From IMG/VR virus record IMGVR_UViG_3300042301_004094, positions 1 to 64,000 of that record: a stretch of 64,000 nt of DNA; one strand, written 5' to 3'. Each line of letters opens with the position of its first letter. Position 1 is the stretch's first letter. Both the position numbers and the translations under genes were made by a program. The notes under the pieces were generated by a model. The model worked only from the letters and a program-made list of their open reading frames with translations. It was not told the DNA's origin and made no database searches. Origin of the DNA: an uncultured virus (IMG/VR IMGVR_UViG_3300042301_004094). Its lineage: Duplodnaviria > Heunggongvirae > Uroviricota > Caudoviricetes. This document shows positions 24,940 through 50,628 of the stretch, one piece after another.

Positions 24940-24970
24940 AAAAAAAAAGACAACCATTTCTGGTTGTCTT
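24940..24970 (-). terminator. intrinsic terminator after tmRNA
   Basis: AAGACAACCA-GAAA-TGGTTGTCTT followed by a long U-run. Confidence 0.85.
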
Positions 24971-24976
24971 AAATTG

Positions 24977-25367
24977 TGGAGGTGAAGGGAGTCGAACCCT
25001 TGTCCAGATACGGATTTAATAAATCTCGTTCACAAGCTTAGTTAATTTTTCTAAATTAACAAAATATGAAGTTTGATGTATGTGGGAATCATACTTCCAA
25101 ATTACCTGGTTGTGGAATTATTTTATGAGGGCTCCACCCTAAGACCCCCTTTGTAGGCACTTCTGTTCCTAGGTTATATGTGCACCGACCCGAGTTGGAC
25201 TAGGCAGCTACTGCGTAATCCGCACCAACGAATGCCATAGCATCTTCGAAGGTCATTGTAGATAATTCTACGTCATTTATTGTTCGATAGGTATTTACGG
25301 ATTTCCATCTAACCCGGCTTGCATCAACTATACCAACTCATCGCACCTGTCAAAACCAGGCACCCCC
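24977..25367 (-). ncRNA. ssrA: tmRNA
   Basis: 5' GGGGGTGCCTGGTTTTGACAG; 3' T-arm GGGTTCGACTCCC and CACCTCCA giving G3:U70; internal tag ORF ending YAVAA*. Confidence 0.93.
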
Positions 25368-25372
25368 ATGTG

Positions 25373-25696
25373 TTAAATAACTTCTGCTTTTTTCTTTCGT
25401 TTTTTGCCTTCTAATATTTTTTGAATATCAGCACACAATTCATATTCTTCTAACTTGATCAAATCATCCATACAATTACTTAACAATTCTTTGTATTGTG
25501 ATTTCTCAATGTTAAATATCATCCCACTTGTGTCTTTGAATGTAATATCAAATATATCTATTCGATCTTTACCTCGTTTATGAGCACTAAGAACACATCT
25601 AACCATTTTAAGTATTAAATCACTATCCCTATCCCTCATCATTTGAAGGAATTGACGATTACTTTCTAACATTAATACCCAACAGGCCATATCCAT
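25373..25696 (-). CDS. protein with C-terminal UVR-like motif
   Basis: LIKLEEYELCADI; start moved downstream of tRNA-Leu. Confidence 0.6.
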   Translation of the reverse strand: MDMACWVLMLESNRQFLQMMRDRDSDLILKMVRCVLSAHKRGKDRIDIFDITFKDTSGMIFNIEKSQYKELLSNCMDDLIKLEEYELCADIQKILEGKKRKKKAEVI

Positions 25697-25704
25697 AATT
25701 ATTG

Positions 25705-25788
25705 TACCAGGAGCGGGAATCGAACCCGCACTCGCGTTGGCGAACAAGATTTTAAGTCTTGCGTGTCTACCTATTCCACCACCCCGGC
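25705..25788 (-). tRNA. tRNA-Leu(TAA)
   Basis: CAAGA-CTTAAAA-TCTTG anticodon arm, long variable arm, GTTCGATTC T-loop; CCA not encoded. Confidence 0.92.
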
Positions 25789-25791
25789 ATG

Positions 25792-25900
25792 TGCAACTTT
25801 TGTATTACCCTATGAGTTGCCAACATCGCCGTCATACGATACGGAGAGTTTCATGTTGCCAGAGGAGTTACTCTGTCTTCGTCGTTCCACGTTCGAACGA
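25792..25900 (-). ncRNA. candidate structured RNA of four tandem hairpins
   Basis: TCGTTC/GAACGA, CAGAG/CTCTG, CAACAT..CCGT/ACGG..ATGTTG, GCAACT/AGTTGC. Confidence 0.4.
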
Positions 25901-25903
25901 TTG

Positions 25904-26062
25904 CTGTAGGGGAAGGATTCGAACCTCCACGCGGCGATTCAACAAATGACACTTTTGCTAGCTAGCCTGTGGTCAACCCATTATCATTTGTCTATCTCGA
26001 ACTCCGCACCCTCGAGACGGGAGGGCATGTCTGCCAAGCGTACGCCTTTTCACCACCCTACA
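25904..26062 (-). ncRNA. atypical tRNA-like RNA with giant variable arm
   Basis: Acceptor TGTAGGG/CCCTACA; T-arm GGAGG-TTCGAAT-CCTTC; CCCTC-CCGTCTC-GAGGG arm; about 80-nt paired insert. Confidence 0.7.
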
Positions 26063-26077
26063 ATTCCAGCTTAATAA

Positions 26078-26287
26078 CTATTGTTTGAAATGTCTTTCAA
26101 GCGTGGCAATTTTATCTTCAGCATCAACTAACATTGTAAGCGCTTCTTCAGCGTTATTGTAGAAGTCTTTTGTTGAATGATCACCAATACCAGCGGCGTG
26201 ATAAGACAATAGATCCAAAGTTAATAGAGCTTTTGTTTTGTCAGCTATTGCTGAAGCCATAAGCATGTCGTATAATTCTTTTTTCAT
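26078..26287 (-). CDS. conserved small phage protein
   Basis: GIGDHS motif between helices. Confidence 0.65.
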   Translation of the reverse strand: MKKELYDMLMASAIADKTKALLTLDLLSYHAAGIGDHSTKDFYNNAEEALTMLVDAEDKIATLERHFKQ

Positions 26288-26365
26288 ATGTGGTTAATTT
26301 ACAATTTTCTTTTTGCCCGTCCAACATTTTTTCTAAATTTCCTTATGTCAAATAAACGTTGCACG

Positions 26366-26439
26366 TGGGCCTGGTAGGAATCGAACCTACTACCTTCACA
26401 TTATGAGTGTGCCGCTCTAACCGATTGAGCTACAGGCCC
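26366..26439 (-). tRNA. tRNA with CAT anticodon (probably Ile2)
   Basis: GGGCCTG acceptor, CTCATAA loop, A73; lacks initiator features. Confidence 0.88.
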
Positions 26440-26445
26440 TTGTTG

Positions 26446-26517
26446 AGCTCCCACTCGGAATCGAACCAAGTTATCATGATTACAAGTCATGCGCATCGCC
26501 TGCAATGCTTTAGGAGC
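26446..26517 (-). tRNA. tRNA-Thr(TGT)
   Basis: CATGA-CTTGTAA-TCATG arm; GCTCCTA/TGGGAGC acceptor. Confidence 0.88.
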
Positions 26518-26526
26518 ATTAATATG

Positions 26527-26611
26527 CGGAAAGACAGGGATTCGAACCCCAGATACCTTTCAGTATGCCGGTTTTCAAGACCGGTGCATTCAACCACTCT
26601 GCCATCTTTCC
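26527..26611 (-). tRNA. tRNA-Ser(TGA)
   Basis: CCGGT-CTTGAAA-ACCGG arm, long variable arm, G73. Confidence 0.93.
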
Positions 26612-26666
26612 TGGAGTGCAGTGGGAGCTAGCTTCCCTGTGGTTACTGCACATTTTATCCACTTTG

Positions 26667-26738
26667 TACTCAGTACGGGATTCGAACCCGTATTACATCC
26701 GTGAAAGGGATGTGACCTAACCCTTAGTCGAACTGAGC
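26667..26738 (-). tRNA. tRNA-Glu(TTC)
   Basis: CATCC-CTTTCAC-GGATG arm; canonical T-arm. Confidence 0.92.
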
Positions 26739-27305: not shown

Positions 27306-27899
27306 TTATAGGATTCCAAGCGCTTTCATATTTTCTATTTGATCTTCTGAAAGCTGGAAATCCGGTTCCTCTACTTTGAATTTGTTAGTGGTGAAACTCT
27401 CAATTTTATCCACTTGATCAGGGGTAAACACGTCACCTATGAATAGAAAATAGCAATTGTAACATAACAATTCTAAATTCTCTAAACGATAATTACGTTT
27501 ATTATTATCTTTAAAATTAAGTAACAATGGTATCTTGTAATCAGTTACTCGACGCTCACAGAATCCACAATTAGCACAATCTTCAGATATTTTATTTTCA
27601 TAAATCAATCTATTCTTAATCTTTTCAGGATTAAAATGAGATGGATCCATCTGCCCATTTAATATCTGTTCTAAAGCAGGTTCTTTTTTAACTCCAACTA
27701 AATGTTTTGGAATGCCTTTACCAGACTGGTTAAAGTGAGTATCAAATAGAGTTTTACCAGTTTCATCATCTTTATAGAGCTTAGCGTATGCTTTGTAATG
27801 AGTATAAGAACAATCTAAGTAACGAGCAGCTGCTCTATTACTACGAGTGTGTCTCATAGCCCTTAAGATATCATCTTTCGAAAACGGTTTTGGTTTCAT
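27306..27899 (-). CDS. HTH plus degenerate HNH-like zinc-binding protein
   Basis: SNRAAARYLDCSY; CANC...LLLNFKDNNKRNYRLENLELLCYNCY. Confidence 0.7.
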   Translation of the reverse strand: MKPKPFSKDDILRAMRHTRSNRAAARYLDCSYTHYKAYAKLYKDDETGKTLFDTHFNQSGKGIPKHLVGVKKEPALEQILNGQMDPSHFNPEKIKNRLIYENKISEDCANCGFCERRVTDYKIPLLLNFKDNNKRNYRLENLELLCYNCYFLFIGDVFTPDQVDKIESFTTNKFKVEEPDFQLSEDQIENMKALGIL

Positions 27900-47625: not shown

Positions 47626-48456
47626 TTATACATTTAGTGTTTTATTCCAAGCAGCAATATGCAATCTTGTTAAACCACGGAAACGATATTTTTTAGCCAT
47701 TTCAAGACAGAATTGAGTACGTTCTTCAAATTCAGCAGCATCGTCTAAACCAGGCATACAAACAACGTTTTTAAGTGGAATATTAAATGGTACTACAAAG
47801 TCACGGAATAATTCTTGTACATCTTCTTCTGTGCTGATAACGAACTTAAATTGATAGTTCTTATGTTCCATAATACGCTCAATAGCAGCAGGAACAATAC
47901 GTTGCTTTTCAGTCATACCTGAATTGGCTAGCTTAGGAGAACAGTTAATTTGGTCTAGTTGATTGAATAATTCGTCTCCAATATAGATTGTACCATTTGT
48001 TTCAATCTCACTATATGGAGTAACTGAAGTATCTAATTTATACCAGTAATATAGAAAATTACAAATGGCTTCTTGATGTCCTTTAATTGTAGGTTCACCT
48101 CCAGTCCAAATAATATGAATGTTACCATCTTTGATATCATCATAAATGTCCTGTTCTTTCCATCGATCGATTAGATATTGGAAATCTTTATCTTCACCTC
48201 TCCACAACCACTGGCTTGTAGAATCACAAGTCCAAGTTGCTTTACCTTCAGCATGAAGGTCACCAACGAATATTTCTCCATCTTCTAATGTTTGTTCTTT
48301 CATTAACTTGTTGGTAAACATTCTACTCATACCACAGGTAAGATTACAAACACCAAAACGTACGAAGTACGAAGGGACACCAGATGAAATACCTTCACCC
48401 TGCACACTGTAAAAATCACTACTGATTAGTAGTTTATTTGGATCAATTTTGCTCAT
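47626..48456 (-). CDS. queE: 7-carboxy-7-deazaguanine synthase (radical SAM)
   Basis: FYSVQGEG, CNLTC...CDS with insertion, TGGEP, ETNG, SPKL, RLH. Confidence 0.92.
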   Translation of the reverse strand: MSKIDPNKLLISSDFYSVQGEGISSGVPSYFVRFGVCNLTCGMSRMFTNKLMKEQTLEDGEIFVGDLHAEGKATWTCDSTSQWLWRGEDKDFQYLIDRWKEQDIYDDIKDGNIHIIWTGGEPTIKGHQEAICNFLYYWYKLDTSVTPYSEIETNGTIYIGDELFNQLDQINCSPKLANSGMTEKQRIVPAAIERIMEHKNYQFKFVISTEEDVQELFRDFVVPFNIPLKNVVCMPGLDDAAEFEERTQFCLEMAKKYRFRGLTRLHIAAWNKTLNV

Positions 48457-49740: not shown

Positions 49741-50628
49741 TTACGAATTGTGTTCAGCTAATACTTTTTCTACATGAGCCTTAGCTACTTCCCATGTTAC
49801 AGGACCTGTTTCGTCAGCATATGCTACAGGATCAGGACGTCCTAATCTAATGAATGCTTCAATACGCTCTACTGATGCTGCTGATTTATAATCAGAATAC
49901 CATTCACCATATTCATCTCCTTGACAGTAGTAAATTGGTTTATAAGATGTATTAGTACGTCTATACACTTCATCAAAATCGAGATTCAAGATACCACAAG
50001 ATCTTTGCCCATCCTCTAAAATGTCAAATTTATTTAACTCAAGATATGGAGTATAATGGTATACTAATTCAGAATCCCAGTTACCAATTTTAAACGCTTC
50101 AAAATCAACATCGCGGAACTCTTGTCTACAATCAGGATAAATTGCATGATCACCAGCATGAATCCCCATTGCGATTGCTACTGAATCTCCTATAGCACAA
50201 TCATCACCAATATTTTTAGTTGCAACTGATAATGCTACAGCTTGAATCAATGAAGCAAATATTTTATTACGATTAGGTACAACTGTTTCTTTCATGTTGT
50301 CCTGCTCATAATGTCCTTCTGGTACATCGGAACCACCAGTTACTAAAGCTGAGTTTAATAATTGTGATAAACCATCTAATTTAATAATTTGAAAGTTTAC
50401 TGTTGGGTAGAATTCTTCAAACCCGTTTGGAGCACGATCATGATGGAATACTCTTAATGGATTAGAGTTAATGTACTCTACTAATGATGTAGCACGCTCT
50501 AATTCTACTTTGTGTTTTTGACCATAATCAAAACCTAATGCTGTTACTTCATAGCCGCTAGCTAATAGGTGTAACAATAATGAACTACTGTCCATACCAC
50601 CTGATAATGATAAAACTGCTTTTTTCAT
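49741..50628 (-). CDS. queC: 7-cyano-7-deazaguanine (preQ0) synthase
   Basis: SGGMDS, FDYGQKH, VPNRN, YPDCR. Confidence 0.94.
   Translation of the reverse strand: MKKAVLSLSGGMDSSSLLLHLLASGYEVTALGFDYGQKHKVELERATSLVEYINSNPLRVFHHDRAPNGFEEFYPTVNFQIIKLDGLSQLLNSALVTGGSDVPEGHYEQDNMKETVVPNRNKIFASLIQAVALSVATKNIGDDCAIGDSVAIAMGIHAGDHAIYPDCRQEFRDVDFEAFKIGNWDSELVYHYTPYLELNKFDILEDGQRSCGILNLDFDEVYRRTNTSYKPIYYCQGDEYGEWYSDYKSAASVERIEAFIRLGRPDPVAYADETGPVTWEVAKAHVEKVLAEHNS

Follow-up and report, generated by a model that had tools for sequence, protein, structure and literature searches.

We analysed a 64,000-nt stretch of DNA (hereafter the window), positions 1 to 64,000 of the IMG/VR virus record IMGVR_UViG_3300042301_004094, an uncultured member of the Caudoviricetes. 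The record comprises 133 kb, is 78% complete and has about 32% G+C. DNA of this phage is found in lake and freshwater metagenomes, and its genes include a family-B DNA polymerase, a clamp loader, GroEL, a ribonucleotide reductase, a UvsX-like recombinase and QueC/QueE-like proteins. The subject of this work is a 159-nt tRNA-shaped RNA (hereafter the element) encoded on the minus strand inside a tRNA array, whose members follow one another on the same strand in the order tRNA-Glu, Ser, Thr, Met, a 69-aa open reading frame (ORF), the element, tRNA-Leu and a tmRNA (Table 1). Over its 133 kb, the phage carries five tRNAs and the tmRNA, with no canonical tRNA-Asp and no other RNA bearing an Asp anticodon.

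The element runs from 26062 (5' end, RNA nt 1) to 25904 (3' end, RNA nt 159). It is a complete class-II tRNA body whose anticodon loop is of the Asp type and whose acceptor end (U1-A72, G73) is of the Asn/Gln type, and it carries a long, structured variable arm. The original prediction, made from the letters of the window, had described a perfect 7-bp acceptor stem, a canonical T arm, G73 and an expanded D region, all of which are present on the minus strand. UGUAGGG and CCCUACA form the acceptor stem through seven Watson-Crick pairs, and the landmarks of a cloverleaf can be read from the sequence (7-bp acceptor, 5-bp T stem, U8, A14, G18G19, U54-U55-C56 and A58). The D loop contains A14 and G18G19 (within UUGGCAGA) together with an inserted mini-hairpin of roughly 10 nt. 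The loop at the anticodon position, CCGTCTC in DNA letters, has the reported GTC centre, C33 and pyrimidine 37 (U37), and as CCGUCUC departs from the canonical 7-nt loop with U33 and a purine at 37. The insert, described as about 80 nt closed by GCGG/CCGC around an inner helix, proves to be a 77-nt arm with an inner helix of 11 bp. From its base outwards, this arm consists of helix P1, a 4-nt bulge, helix P1b, an internal loop and helix P2, and it ends in a three-way junction with a hairpin (UGGGUUGACCACA) and a mini-hairpin.

Table 1. Features of the window and of related loci. Positions refer to the window unless a locus is named. Depths are summed contig word depths in metatranscriptome runs X15-X18.
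Feature	Position	Strand	Remarks
Whole tRNA-like RNA	25904..26062	-	model R1, 150.7 bits, E 3.4e-39, full length 1-151 of 151
Acceptor stem, 5' strand UGUAGGG	26056..26062	-	U1, G2, U3 near-invariant across family
Acceptor stem, 3' strand CCCUACA, and discriminator G73 (25904)	25904..25911	-	parsed from sequence; 25911-25905 pairs with 26062-26056
D arm, 3-bp stem GUG/CAU and 21-nt loop (26050-26030)	26027..26053	-	pairs 10:25 and 11:24 covary
Anticodon arm CCCUC-CCGUCUC-GAGGG	26009..26025	-	compensatory changes in 4/5 stem pairs
Anticodon loop C32 C33 G34 U35 C36 U37 C38	26020-26014	-	GUC in centre
Variable arm, 77 nt	25931..26007	-	P1, P1b, P2 covary strongly
Variable arm, P1, GCGG/CCGC	26007-26004 with 25934-25931	-	then 4-nt bulge
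Variable arm, P1b, CGA/UCG	25999-25997 with 25937-25935	-	then internal loop
Variable arm, P2, 11 bp	25992-25982 with 25951-25941	-	
Variable arm, tip hairpin	25980-25968	-	three-way junction
Variable arm, tip mini-hairpin GCU-AGCU-AGC	25966-25957	-	three-way junction
T arm GGAGG-UUCGAAU-CCUUC	25912..25928	-	one G.U pair; 3/5 stem pairs covary
tRNA-Glu(UUC), Ser(UGA), Thr(UGU), Met(CAU)	26365..26738	-	upstream part of array; ARAGORN, Rfam RF00005
69-aa ORF, phrog_1811	26078-26287		
tRNA-Leu(UAA)	25704..25788	-	116 nt 3' of element; same strand
Phage tmRNA	24976..25367	-	end of array; ARAGORN; Rfam RF00023, 100.1 bits
HNH endonuclease gene	27306-27899	-	near tRNA array
QueE-like gene	47626-48456	-	7-deazaguanine pathway; PHROGs
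QueC-like gene	49741-50628	-	7-deazaguanine pathway; PHROGs
Depth, element bins	25860-26051		X15 276-355; X16 19-53; X17 28-106; X18 8-11
Depth, flank bins	25412-25667		X15 7.6; X16 20; X17 0; X18 0
Depth, flank bins	26180-26243		X15 0; X16 9; X17 0; X18 11
Depth, tmRNA bins	24964-25283		X15 80-454; X16 0-501; X17 58-169; X18 25-202
Two-helix membrane protein (examples)	L051:291-587; L037:1665-1910		oriented coordinates; predicted membrane helices
RNase H-like protein (example)	L020:1508-1969	-	PF04308
TrmB-type methyltransferase (example)	L097:1016-1789	-	PF02390
GOLLD RNA	L036:2850-3254	+	RF02032, 316 bits

Standard annotation does not see this RNA. ARAGORN calls neither the element in the window nor its relatives in 49 phage loci and 47 host loci. 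In Rfam 15, RF00005 included, the element is unmatched at the gathering score, and also at E up to 10 when positions 25780-26370 are searched; at E<=0.01, nothing covers the RNA in four host-type loci, one host tandem-pair locus and two phage loci. Both programs, which the original prediction had proposed as checks, thus leave the element uncalled, while the covariance model it had also suggested could be built from phage homologs and scores the window copy at 150.7 bits. Folded singly, the window element does no better than its shuffles (z = -0.91), and therefore one sequence alone proves nothing.

We then turned to the family. Two pattern scans of IMG/VR returned 13 and then 78 loci (74/78 being relatives), which together yield 49 distinct sequences; with about 55 copies in Bacteroidota chromosomes, these phage copies make up the family. 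A covariance model, R1, was built from 50 phage copies, in which 96.7% of cells pair against 81.3% after shuffling, and both sides change in 24/36 pairs of the RNAalifold structure and in 28/42 pairs of an extended structure. When 106 copies from phages and hosts are aligned, the share of paired cells is 96.9% (77.4% after shuffling), both-side changes occur in 33/42 pairs, none of 500 shuffles reaches any of five measures, and sliding the 3' partners by 1-3 columns cuts pairing to 44-56%. This larger alignment was fitted by R1 and so leans towards structure; a MAFFT-based count on the 50 phage copies, free of that lean, agrees with it. All nine helices are supported, namely the acceptor, D, anticodon and T stems and five helices within the long arm. 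Because covariation across the family supports all of them, the element is a genuine structured and conserved tRNA-shaped RNA, not a decayed gene.

The same data bear on the view that the element is a pseudogene, or a tRNA with a spliced intron in its variable region, an account that we find highly improbable. Its pseudogene version is contradicted by the covariation, which extends into the insert itself (helices 4-8), and the family has been kept in phages as well as in at least four bacterial orders. As for an intron, the insert lies between positions 44 and 48 and not in the anticodon loop, and no group I intron or other Rfam family matches it. The original prediction had preferred a tRNA mimic to simple decay; covarying homologs, contigs from RNA libraries (see below) and the lack of any matching described family or intron type all bear it out.

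The acceptor end and the anticodon loop are strictly conserved. U1-A72 is found in 106/106 sequences, G2-C71 and U3-A70 in 105/106 each, and pairs 6:67 and 7:66 covary. The discriminator is G73 in 105/105 parsed sequences, followed by a templated C in all extracts inspected, and the acceptor/T layout is 7/5 in all 106. Also constant in the family are the letters of the tRNA core. The GUC anticodon, a pyrimidine at 37 and C38 are present in 105/105 parsed loops. Position 33 is freer (U in 89, C in 12 and A in 4 of them), so that C33, seen in the loop CCGUCUC, is a peculiarity of the sub-clade of the window. Host copies have a nearly invariant anticodon arm, CCCUC-YUGUCUC-GGGGG.

Other parts vary widely. 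The variable arm measures 31-130 nt and the whole RNA 99-233 nt, with a conserved arm base made of P1, the 4-nt bulge, P1b, the internal loop and P2, in which both sides change in 3/4, 3/3 and 7/9 pairs of P1, P1b and P2, respectively. Since the base alone of this arm is conserved, at such different lengths, the suggestion that a tRNA scaffold carries a small RNA is weakened. The D-loop insertion is optional, being of other lengths or absent in relatives, and 24/50 phage copies have a plain class-II-type loop. One bulged base interrupts the 5' strand of the T stem in 28/105 parsed relatives and is absent from the window copy; the T loop was part of the search patterns, which accounts for its invariance. 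A motif, GGG-K-W-GACCAC, is shared by most phage and many host copies; it lies in a hairpin at the three-way junction and is lacking in short host forms. Part of this motif was in the second search pattern, and inspection by eye found no pairing partner for the invariant GACCAC elsewhere in the RNA.

Scanning bacterial contigs, one genome per species (genome_contigs), with the same pattern gave 60 loci, of which about 47 are family members and 11 are chance matches in other phyla or genes. The host records all belong to the Bacteroidota (Chitinophagaceae, Cytophagales/Spirosomataceae, Sphingobacteriales, Saprospiraceae, Cyclobacteriaceae, Flavobacteriales and Bacteroidia) and include a 4.2-Mb chromosome and two isolates. 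There the gene stands alone: no tRNA lies within 2 kb in 44/47 loci, and the three loci with a nearby tRNA resemble phage contigs binned into genomes. In the host loci inspected by eye, the gene is preceded by a TAnnTTTG motif, which we take to be the Bacteroidota -7 promoter box. When the phylum was sampled evenly, 15/151 genomes matched at E<=1e-12, a lower bound given the strict filters, the 20 candidates scored per genome and the miss of one genome (G047) whose copy is cut by a contig end.

Tandem second copies are frequent in hosts. Loci L094, L096, L100, L110, L119, L121, L130, L136, L138, L146, L147, L150 and L152 have two copies each, some of them pairing a long-arm with a short-arm form (166 and 116 nt in L096, 158 and 117 nt in L119), and L136 also holds a 99-nt copy with a degenerate anticodon loop. 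The downstream neighbours vary and include a GT2 protein, a TrmB-like methyltransferase, MerR, an aminotransferase and SufB. The TrmB-type methyltransferase (PF02390), presumably a tRNA m7G46 methyltransferase, lies downstream of the element in four host loci.

Upstream, in contrast, one gene recurs in the hosts. A divergent AsnC-like gene of roughly 157 aa lies 51-558 nt upstream of the RNA in 33/47 host loci, and Pfam recognizes AsnC-type helix-turn-helix and ligand domains in its product. Its best NCBIfam match is 'transcriptional regulator AsnC' (E 7e-49, 165 bits, under the 227-bit cut-off; next family 77 bits), and its best PDB match is E. coli AsnC, 2CG4 (E 2e-33; next E 4e-20). A single ortholog (52-66% identity) occurs in 15/15 RNA-bearing genomes, adjacent and divergent in 8 and unlinked in 7. 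It also occurs in 1/20 genomes without an RNA call, and that genome holds a copy of the RNA cut by a contig end (78.9 bits), for a corrected tally of 16/16 with the RNA and 0/19 without. Because the two are present together even when unlinked, this argues for regulator and RNA as a functional pair.

In phages (49 loci), the element shares its strand with the tRNA array and often sits 5-8 nt behind or ahead of a tRNA, a spacing that is that of co-processed tRNA precursors. Canonical tRNA-Asp(GUC) occurs within 2 kb of it in phage loci L019, L062, L063 and L133. Phages appear to travel without the regulator: three phage records, of which two reach at least 97% completeness, yielded no AsnC-family domain. 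The class IIb synthetase domain PF00152 was likewise not found in three phage records. A blastn search of 50,697 GenBank phage records, with the window element plus flanks and a consensus-like member as queries, returned no relative, hence none in a cultured phage at this sensitivity. Upstream of the element, 17/49 phage loci encode a two-helix membrane protein of about 76 aa that often ends 4-6 nt before it and in place of which the window has the 69-aa ORF, and 8 phage loci encode downstream an RNase H-like protein (PF04308, E 4e-16) of roughly 153 aa, which starts within about 150 nt of the element, mostly at 29-42 nt. Both neighbours look like lineage synteny.

A FastTree phylogeny on 148 columns, of low resolution, gathers 44/51 phage copies into two groups made up of phage sequences only (38 and 6 members); the remaining 7 are found in mixed or single-sequence positions, two of them each paired with a host copy. 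More than one transfer between host and phage is likely, judging from this branching. We consider that the element may well be a phage copy of a Bacteroidota tRNA-like RNA whose bacterial gene came first, a view to which, taken jointly with the charging and non-decoding proposal set out below, we give an even chance.

To follow the RNA itself, we used four metatranscriptome runs (X15-X18) from four studies, in the form of assembled contigs. Element and tmRNA bins are covered in these runs (Table 1), with a weak contrast between element and flanks in X16 and X18; stretches of the window that no contig covers carry no weight as evidence. Contigs run continuously through the long arm in X15 (25875-26036), X17 (25906-26158) and X18 (25910-26243). 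In a single X16 contig (depth 4, shorter side 29 nt), 25931 is joined to 26009 with a skip of 77 nt, equal to the length of the arm, which is the observation that favours an intron; against it stand the three continuous runs, the 3-nt variable loop that such a skip would leave, and the frequent origin of such joints from other organisms when likeness is under 95% or one side is shorter than 30. The skip may come from another organism's tRNA or from a rare processed form. The X15 and X16 contigs share an end at 26036 (RNA nt 27), immediately 5' to G18G19 of the enlarged D loop; a weak hint, it might be a modification stop or an assembly break.

We propose that the element is a host-derived, tRNA-processed RNA that is charged with aspartate and does not decode, a reading that we judge about equally likely to be right or wrong and in which the function is inferred. 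It would be transcribed with the phage tRNA array and accumulate as RNA, as the RNA-library contigs suggest. Because its tRNA core is intact and neighbouring tRNAs lie 5-8 nt away, it would then mature like a tRNA, through RNase P, 3' trimming and CCA addition. The host aspartyl-tRNA synthetase (AspRS) would charge it, since the letters G73, G34, U35, C36 and C38 of the identity set are intact. It would take no ordinary elongator role; its place would be in a pathway linked to amino acids, either as an aminoacyl carrier or as a tRNA mimic. In bacteria, the dedicated AsnC-type regulator would switch that pathway; the phage would supply the RNA without the regulator, and hence produce it constitutively during infection.

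The charging step draws on the bacterial AspRS identity set, given as G73, G10, G34, U35, C36 and C38 in the identity table of PMC9976931. Five of these six letters, all but G10, are invariant in the family, and among the functions offered by the original prediction a synthetase binder fits best for this reason. The same table lends some weight to a different synthetase. In that account, the RNA would be serine-charged by SerRS, which ignores the anticodon, and would be an allo-tRNA-like carrier of serine with an Asp anticodon, for recoding or for conversion of a tRNA-bound amino acid. The class-II body with its large variable region, G73, G2-C71 and R4-Y69 supply 4/7 of the bacterial Ser determinants tabulated there (PMC9976931), SerRS relies on G73 and the long arm, and allo-tRNAs often have GUC as their anticodon (PMC7609411). 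However, A72 replaces C72 in 106/106 sequences, C11-G24 is found in only 25/106, pair 30:40 is U.G and not G-C, and a 4-nt bulge after 4-5 bp would alter the direction of the arm. The 7/5 layout is not the 8/4 or 9/3 of allo-tRNAs (PMC5389517), and the invariance of the anticodon would go unexplained if SerRS were the sole reader. Charging with serine thus appears decidedly unlikely.

That the RNA does not decode is suggested by its universal pyrimidine 37, by the clades in which U33 has been lost, by the bulge in the T stem and the great size of the arm, and also by the canonical tRNA-Asp alongside it and its private regulator. Decoding tRNAs almost always have a purine at position 37, and U33 plus purine 37 mark working tRNAs; the pyrimidine 37 would disable the Asp loop for normal decoding. 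The opposite view, that the element is a working elongator tRNA-Asp isoacceptor with an oversized variable arm, which phages carry for decoding capacity, would account for the complete tRNA core, the invariant GUC anticodon, the place inside phage tRNA arrays, and the U33 kept in 89/105 copies, and would fit a phage with only five tRNAs and no other Asp-anticodon RNA in 133 kb. It is hard to square with a pyrimidine 37 in every parsed copy, C33 or A33 in 16 copies and a bulged T stem in 28, or with an acceptor end of U1-A72 where tRNA-Asp has G1-C72. Canonical tRNA-Asp is also present in each of the five hosts tested (5/5) and in several phages, and the host gene has a dedicated regulator. We therefore regard a decoding role as unlikely.

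A protein that reads tRNA-Asp could also be the partner of an RNA that is never charged. The element would then be a regulatory mimic or decoy for an anticodon nuclease, a tRNA-guanine transglycosylase or AspRS, or an occupant of the ribosome in famine. The nearly invariant host anticodon arm suggests reading by a protein, pyrimidine 37 and the big arm would exclude the RNA from decoding, Lrp/AsnC-type control that responds to amino acids suits signalling, and the phage expresses the RNA without the regulator. On the other hand, one would not expect an anti-defence decoy to reside in the host chromosomes of at least four orders and to have a regulator of its own, and no nuclease or toxin gene was found as a conserved neighbour among the phage and host loci. 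The tRNA-guanine transglycosylase requires U33-G34-U35, whereas the RNA is retained in the window clade despite its C33. Conservation of the acceptor stem and G73 is as strict as that of the loop, which argues that the 3' end is used and makes charging likely. An uncharged mimic is thus, in our judgement, an improbable account. Of the interpretations offered by the original prediction, the tRNA mimic is supported and the synthetase binder fits best, while the small-RNA scaffold loses ground, as does the phage-made decoy for anticodon nucleases, given an RNA that is native to Bacteroidota chromosomes and comes with a dedicated regulator.

Several points weigh against the proposal of an Asp-charged, non-decoding RNA. 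G10, a bacterial Asp determinant, is unconserved, position 10 being A, G or U, and part of the SerRS set tabulated in PMC9976931 is matched as well, by G73, G2-C71, R4-Y69 and the large variable region. Contigs from RNA libraries show neither ends, strand nor level, the libraries may contain DNA, and the X15 contig over the element is chimeric with tRNA-Leu. The steps after transcription (processing, charging and binding) are read from sequence patterns, the co-occurrence of regulator and RNA may partly be taxonomic and reflect shared ancestry, and the proposal does not account for the internal loop that is conserved near the base of the arm.

We further considered what an Asp-charged, non-decoding RNA could be used for. 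A tentative and rather doubtful suggestion is that it is a dedicated non-translational scaffold for tRNA-dependent asparagine synthesis. AspRS would load aspartate by reading GUC, C38 and G73, and GatCAB would accept the RNA via U1-A72 and amidate the aspartate to asparagine. Pyrimidine 37, the giant arm and the bulged T stem would bar the Asn-RNA from the ribosome, so that Asp codons would not be misread. The AsnC-type regulator would activate the gene under asparagine shortage, with the RNA gene in the role of asnA; in E. coli, asnA stands beside asnC. Phages would carry the RNA without the regulator to raise the asparagine supply. Amidotransferases depend on the U1-A72 pair (PMC9976931), and this mark of GatCAB substrates of the tRNA-Asn/Gln type is found in 106/106 sequences. 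The best matches of the regulator, in NCBIfam and the PDB, are AsnC itself, which also favours the suggestion.

We then took gene inventories of the host genomes. gatB is present in 15/15 RNA-bearing genomes and 126/151 overall. Because GlnRS is present in 12/15 RNA-bearing genomes and AsnRS (asnS) in all 25/25 genomes, GatCAB is dispensable there for ordinary charging, as it likewise is in 7/10 relatives without the RNA. Each of the 25 genomes has one aspS, with no dedicated second AspRS. asnA is found in 4/151 genomes, none of them RNA-bearing. Other results speak against the scaffold: AsnB-type genes occur in 13/15 RNA-bearing genomes and 8/10 without the RNA, which shows no complementarity; GatCAB is equally common without the RNA; and in asnA-bearing genomes the nearest regulator homolog does not adjoin asnA. 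We also know of no release step for free asparagine. The scaffold survives these inventory tests and gains no phyletic support from them, so that we still see it as a possible but doubtful use of the RNA.

To place the family, we compared it with known tRNA-like RNAs. Canonical bacterial tRNA-Asp(GUC) shares G73, G2-C71, the loop C/U32-U33-G34-U35-C36-x-C38 and the tRNA core. In contrast to it, the element has U1-A72 and U3-A70 instead of G1-C72, its position 37 is a pyrimidine and not A, its D arm is of class II, and its variable arm measures 31-130 nt where tRNA-Asp has 4-5 nt; it also coexists with the canonical gene and escapes ARAGORN and RF00005. With the class II tRNAs (Ser, Leu, Tyr) and tRNA-Sec, it shares a 3-bp D stem, a GAAAUUGGCAGA-type D loop and a helical arm between positions 44 and 48, and the family model weakly matches tRNA-Leu (37.8 bits) and an 87-nt class-II tRNA in L151 (44.5 bits). 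Its arm is several times longer than theirs, branches at the tip and contains a bulge and an internal loop that are conserved, its anticodon is of the Asp type, and it has part or none of the Leu, Ser and Tyr identity sets as tabulated in PMC9976931. tRNA-Asn and tRNA-Gln, the GatCAB substrates, share the U1-A72 first pair and G73, whereas the element has GUC and not GUU or YUG as anticodon and a class-II-type D loop of variable size.

Allo-tRNAs, which are defined by an 8/4 or 9/3 acceptor/T layout (Mukai et al., PMC5389517), are likewise non-canonical tRNAs mined from metagenomes, with a long variable arm, G73 and often GUC (PMC7609411). The element differs from them in its 7/5 layout, pyrimidine 37, far larger arm and dedicated regulator. 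The T4 species 1 and 2 RNAs (rnaC and rnaD) are tRNA-like in processing and resemble the element in being stable RNAs of unknown function, about 120-140 nt long, within a phage tRNA cluster; rnaC has a tRNA-type T arm, and neither an anticodon arm nor a class-II D arm was discerned in it by eye. As homologs they were rejected, since model R1 finds nothing at E<=1 in T4 68000-76000 (L015). The element is not a tmRNA either. A tmRNA has a tag reading frame and a tRNA-like domain that lacks an anticodon arm, whereas the anticodon arm of the element covaries; the tmRNA that RF00023 and ARAGORN detect lies apart from it, at 24976-25367.

We found no description of the family in Rfam 15 or in the literature, as far as passages, abstracts and listings of papers extend. 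DNAVirus_1850, from a catalogue of structured RNAs in IMG/VR (PMC10690425), was set aside as a 66-nt marine motif that overlaps a tRNA-Asp call once. Six contig ids of the family are absent from the searchable supplements of that paper, which leaves room for overlap with its supplement files 1 and 2. The family thus is an apparently undescribed kind of non-canonical tRNA-like RNA, with class-II tRNAs, allo-tRNAs and the T4 species 1 and 2 RNAs as its nearest kinds.

Three further observations concern the surroundings of the RNA in phages. The tmRNA of the window encodes a long tag peptide ending in ...YAVAA, and tmRNAs with similar tags adjoin the element in related phage loci. The placement of the HNH endonuclease gene resembles that of homing endonucleases that interrupt the tRNA region of T4 (segB). 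In a 297-kb phage contig, a GOLLD RNA lies about 780 nt downstream of the element (Table 1), which puts two large or unusual structured RNAs into a single tRNA region.

Non-decoding RNAs with the shape of a tRNA are rare, and the known cases opened new biology, for example tmRNA, the tRNA-Gly species of cell-wall synthesis and the Y-RNA-like tRNA mimics. The family described here is common in environmental Bacteroidota (at least 15/151 sampled genomes), is under strong structural selection, is tied one-to-one to a dedicated AsnC-type regulator and appears to have been taken up more than once by large freshwater phages. For annotation, this means that standard tRNA and Rfam scans miss an entire family. 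It also raises the questions of what use is made of a tRNA with an Asp anticodon, an Asn-type acceptor and a decoding-dead loop, and of why GatCAB persists despite GlnRS and AsnRS. The records include cultured strains (Ravibacter arvi JCM 31920 and Algoriphagus aquaeductus T4), which makes these questions testable.

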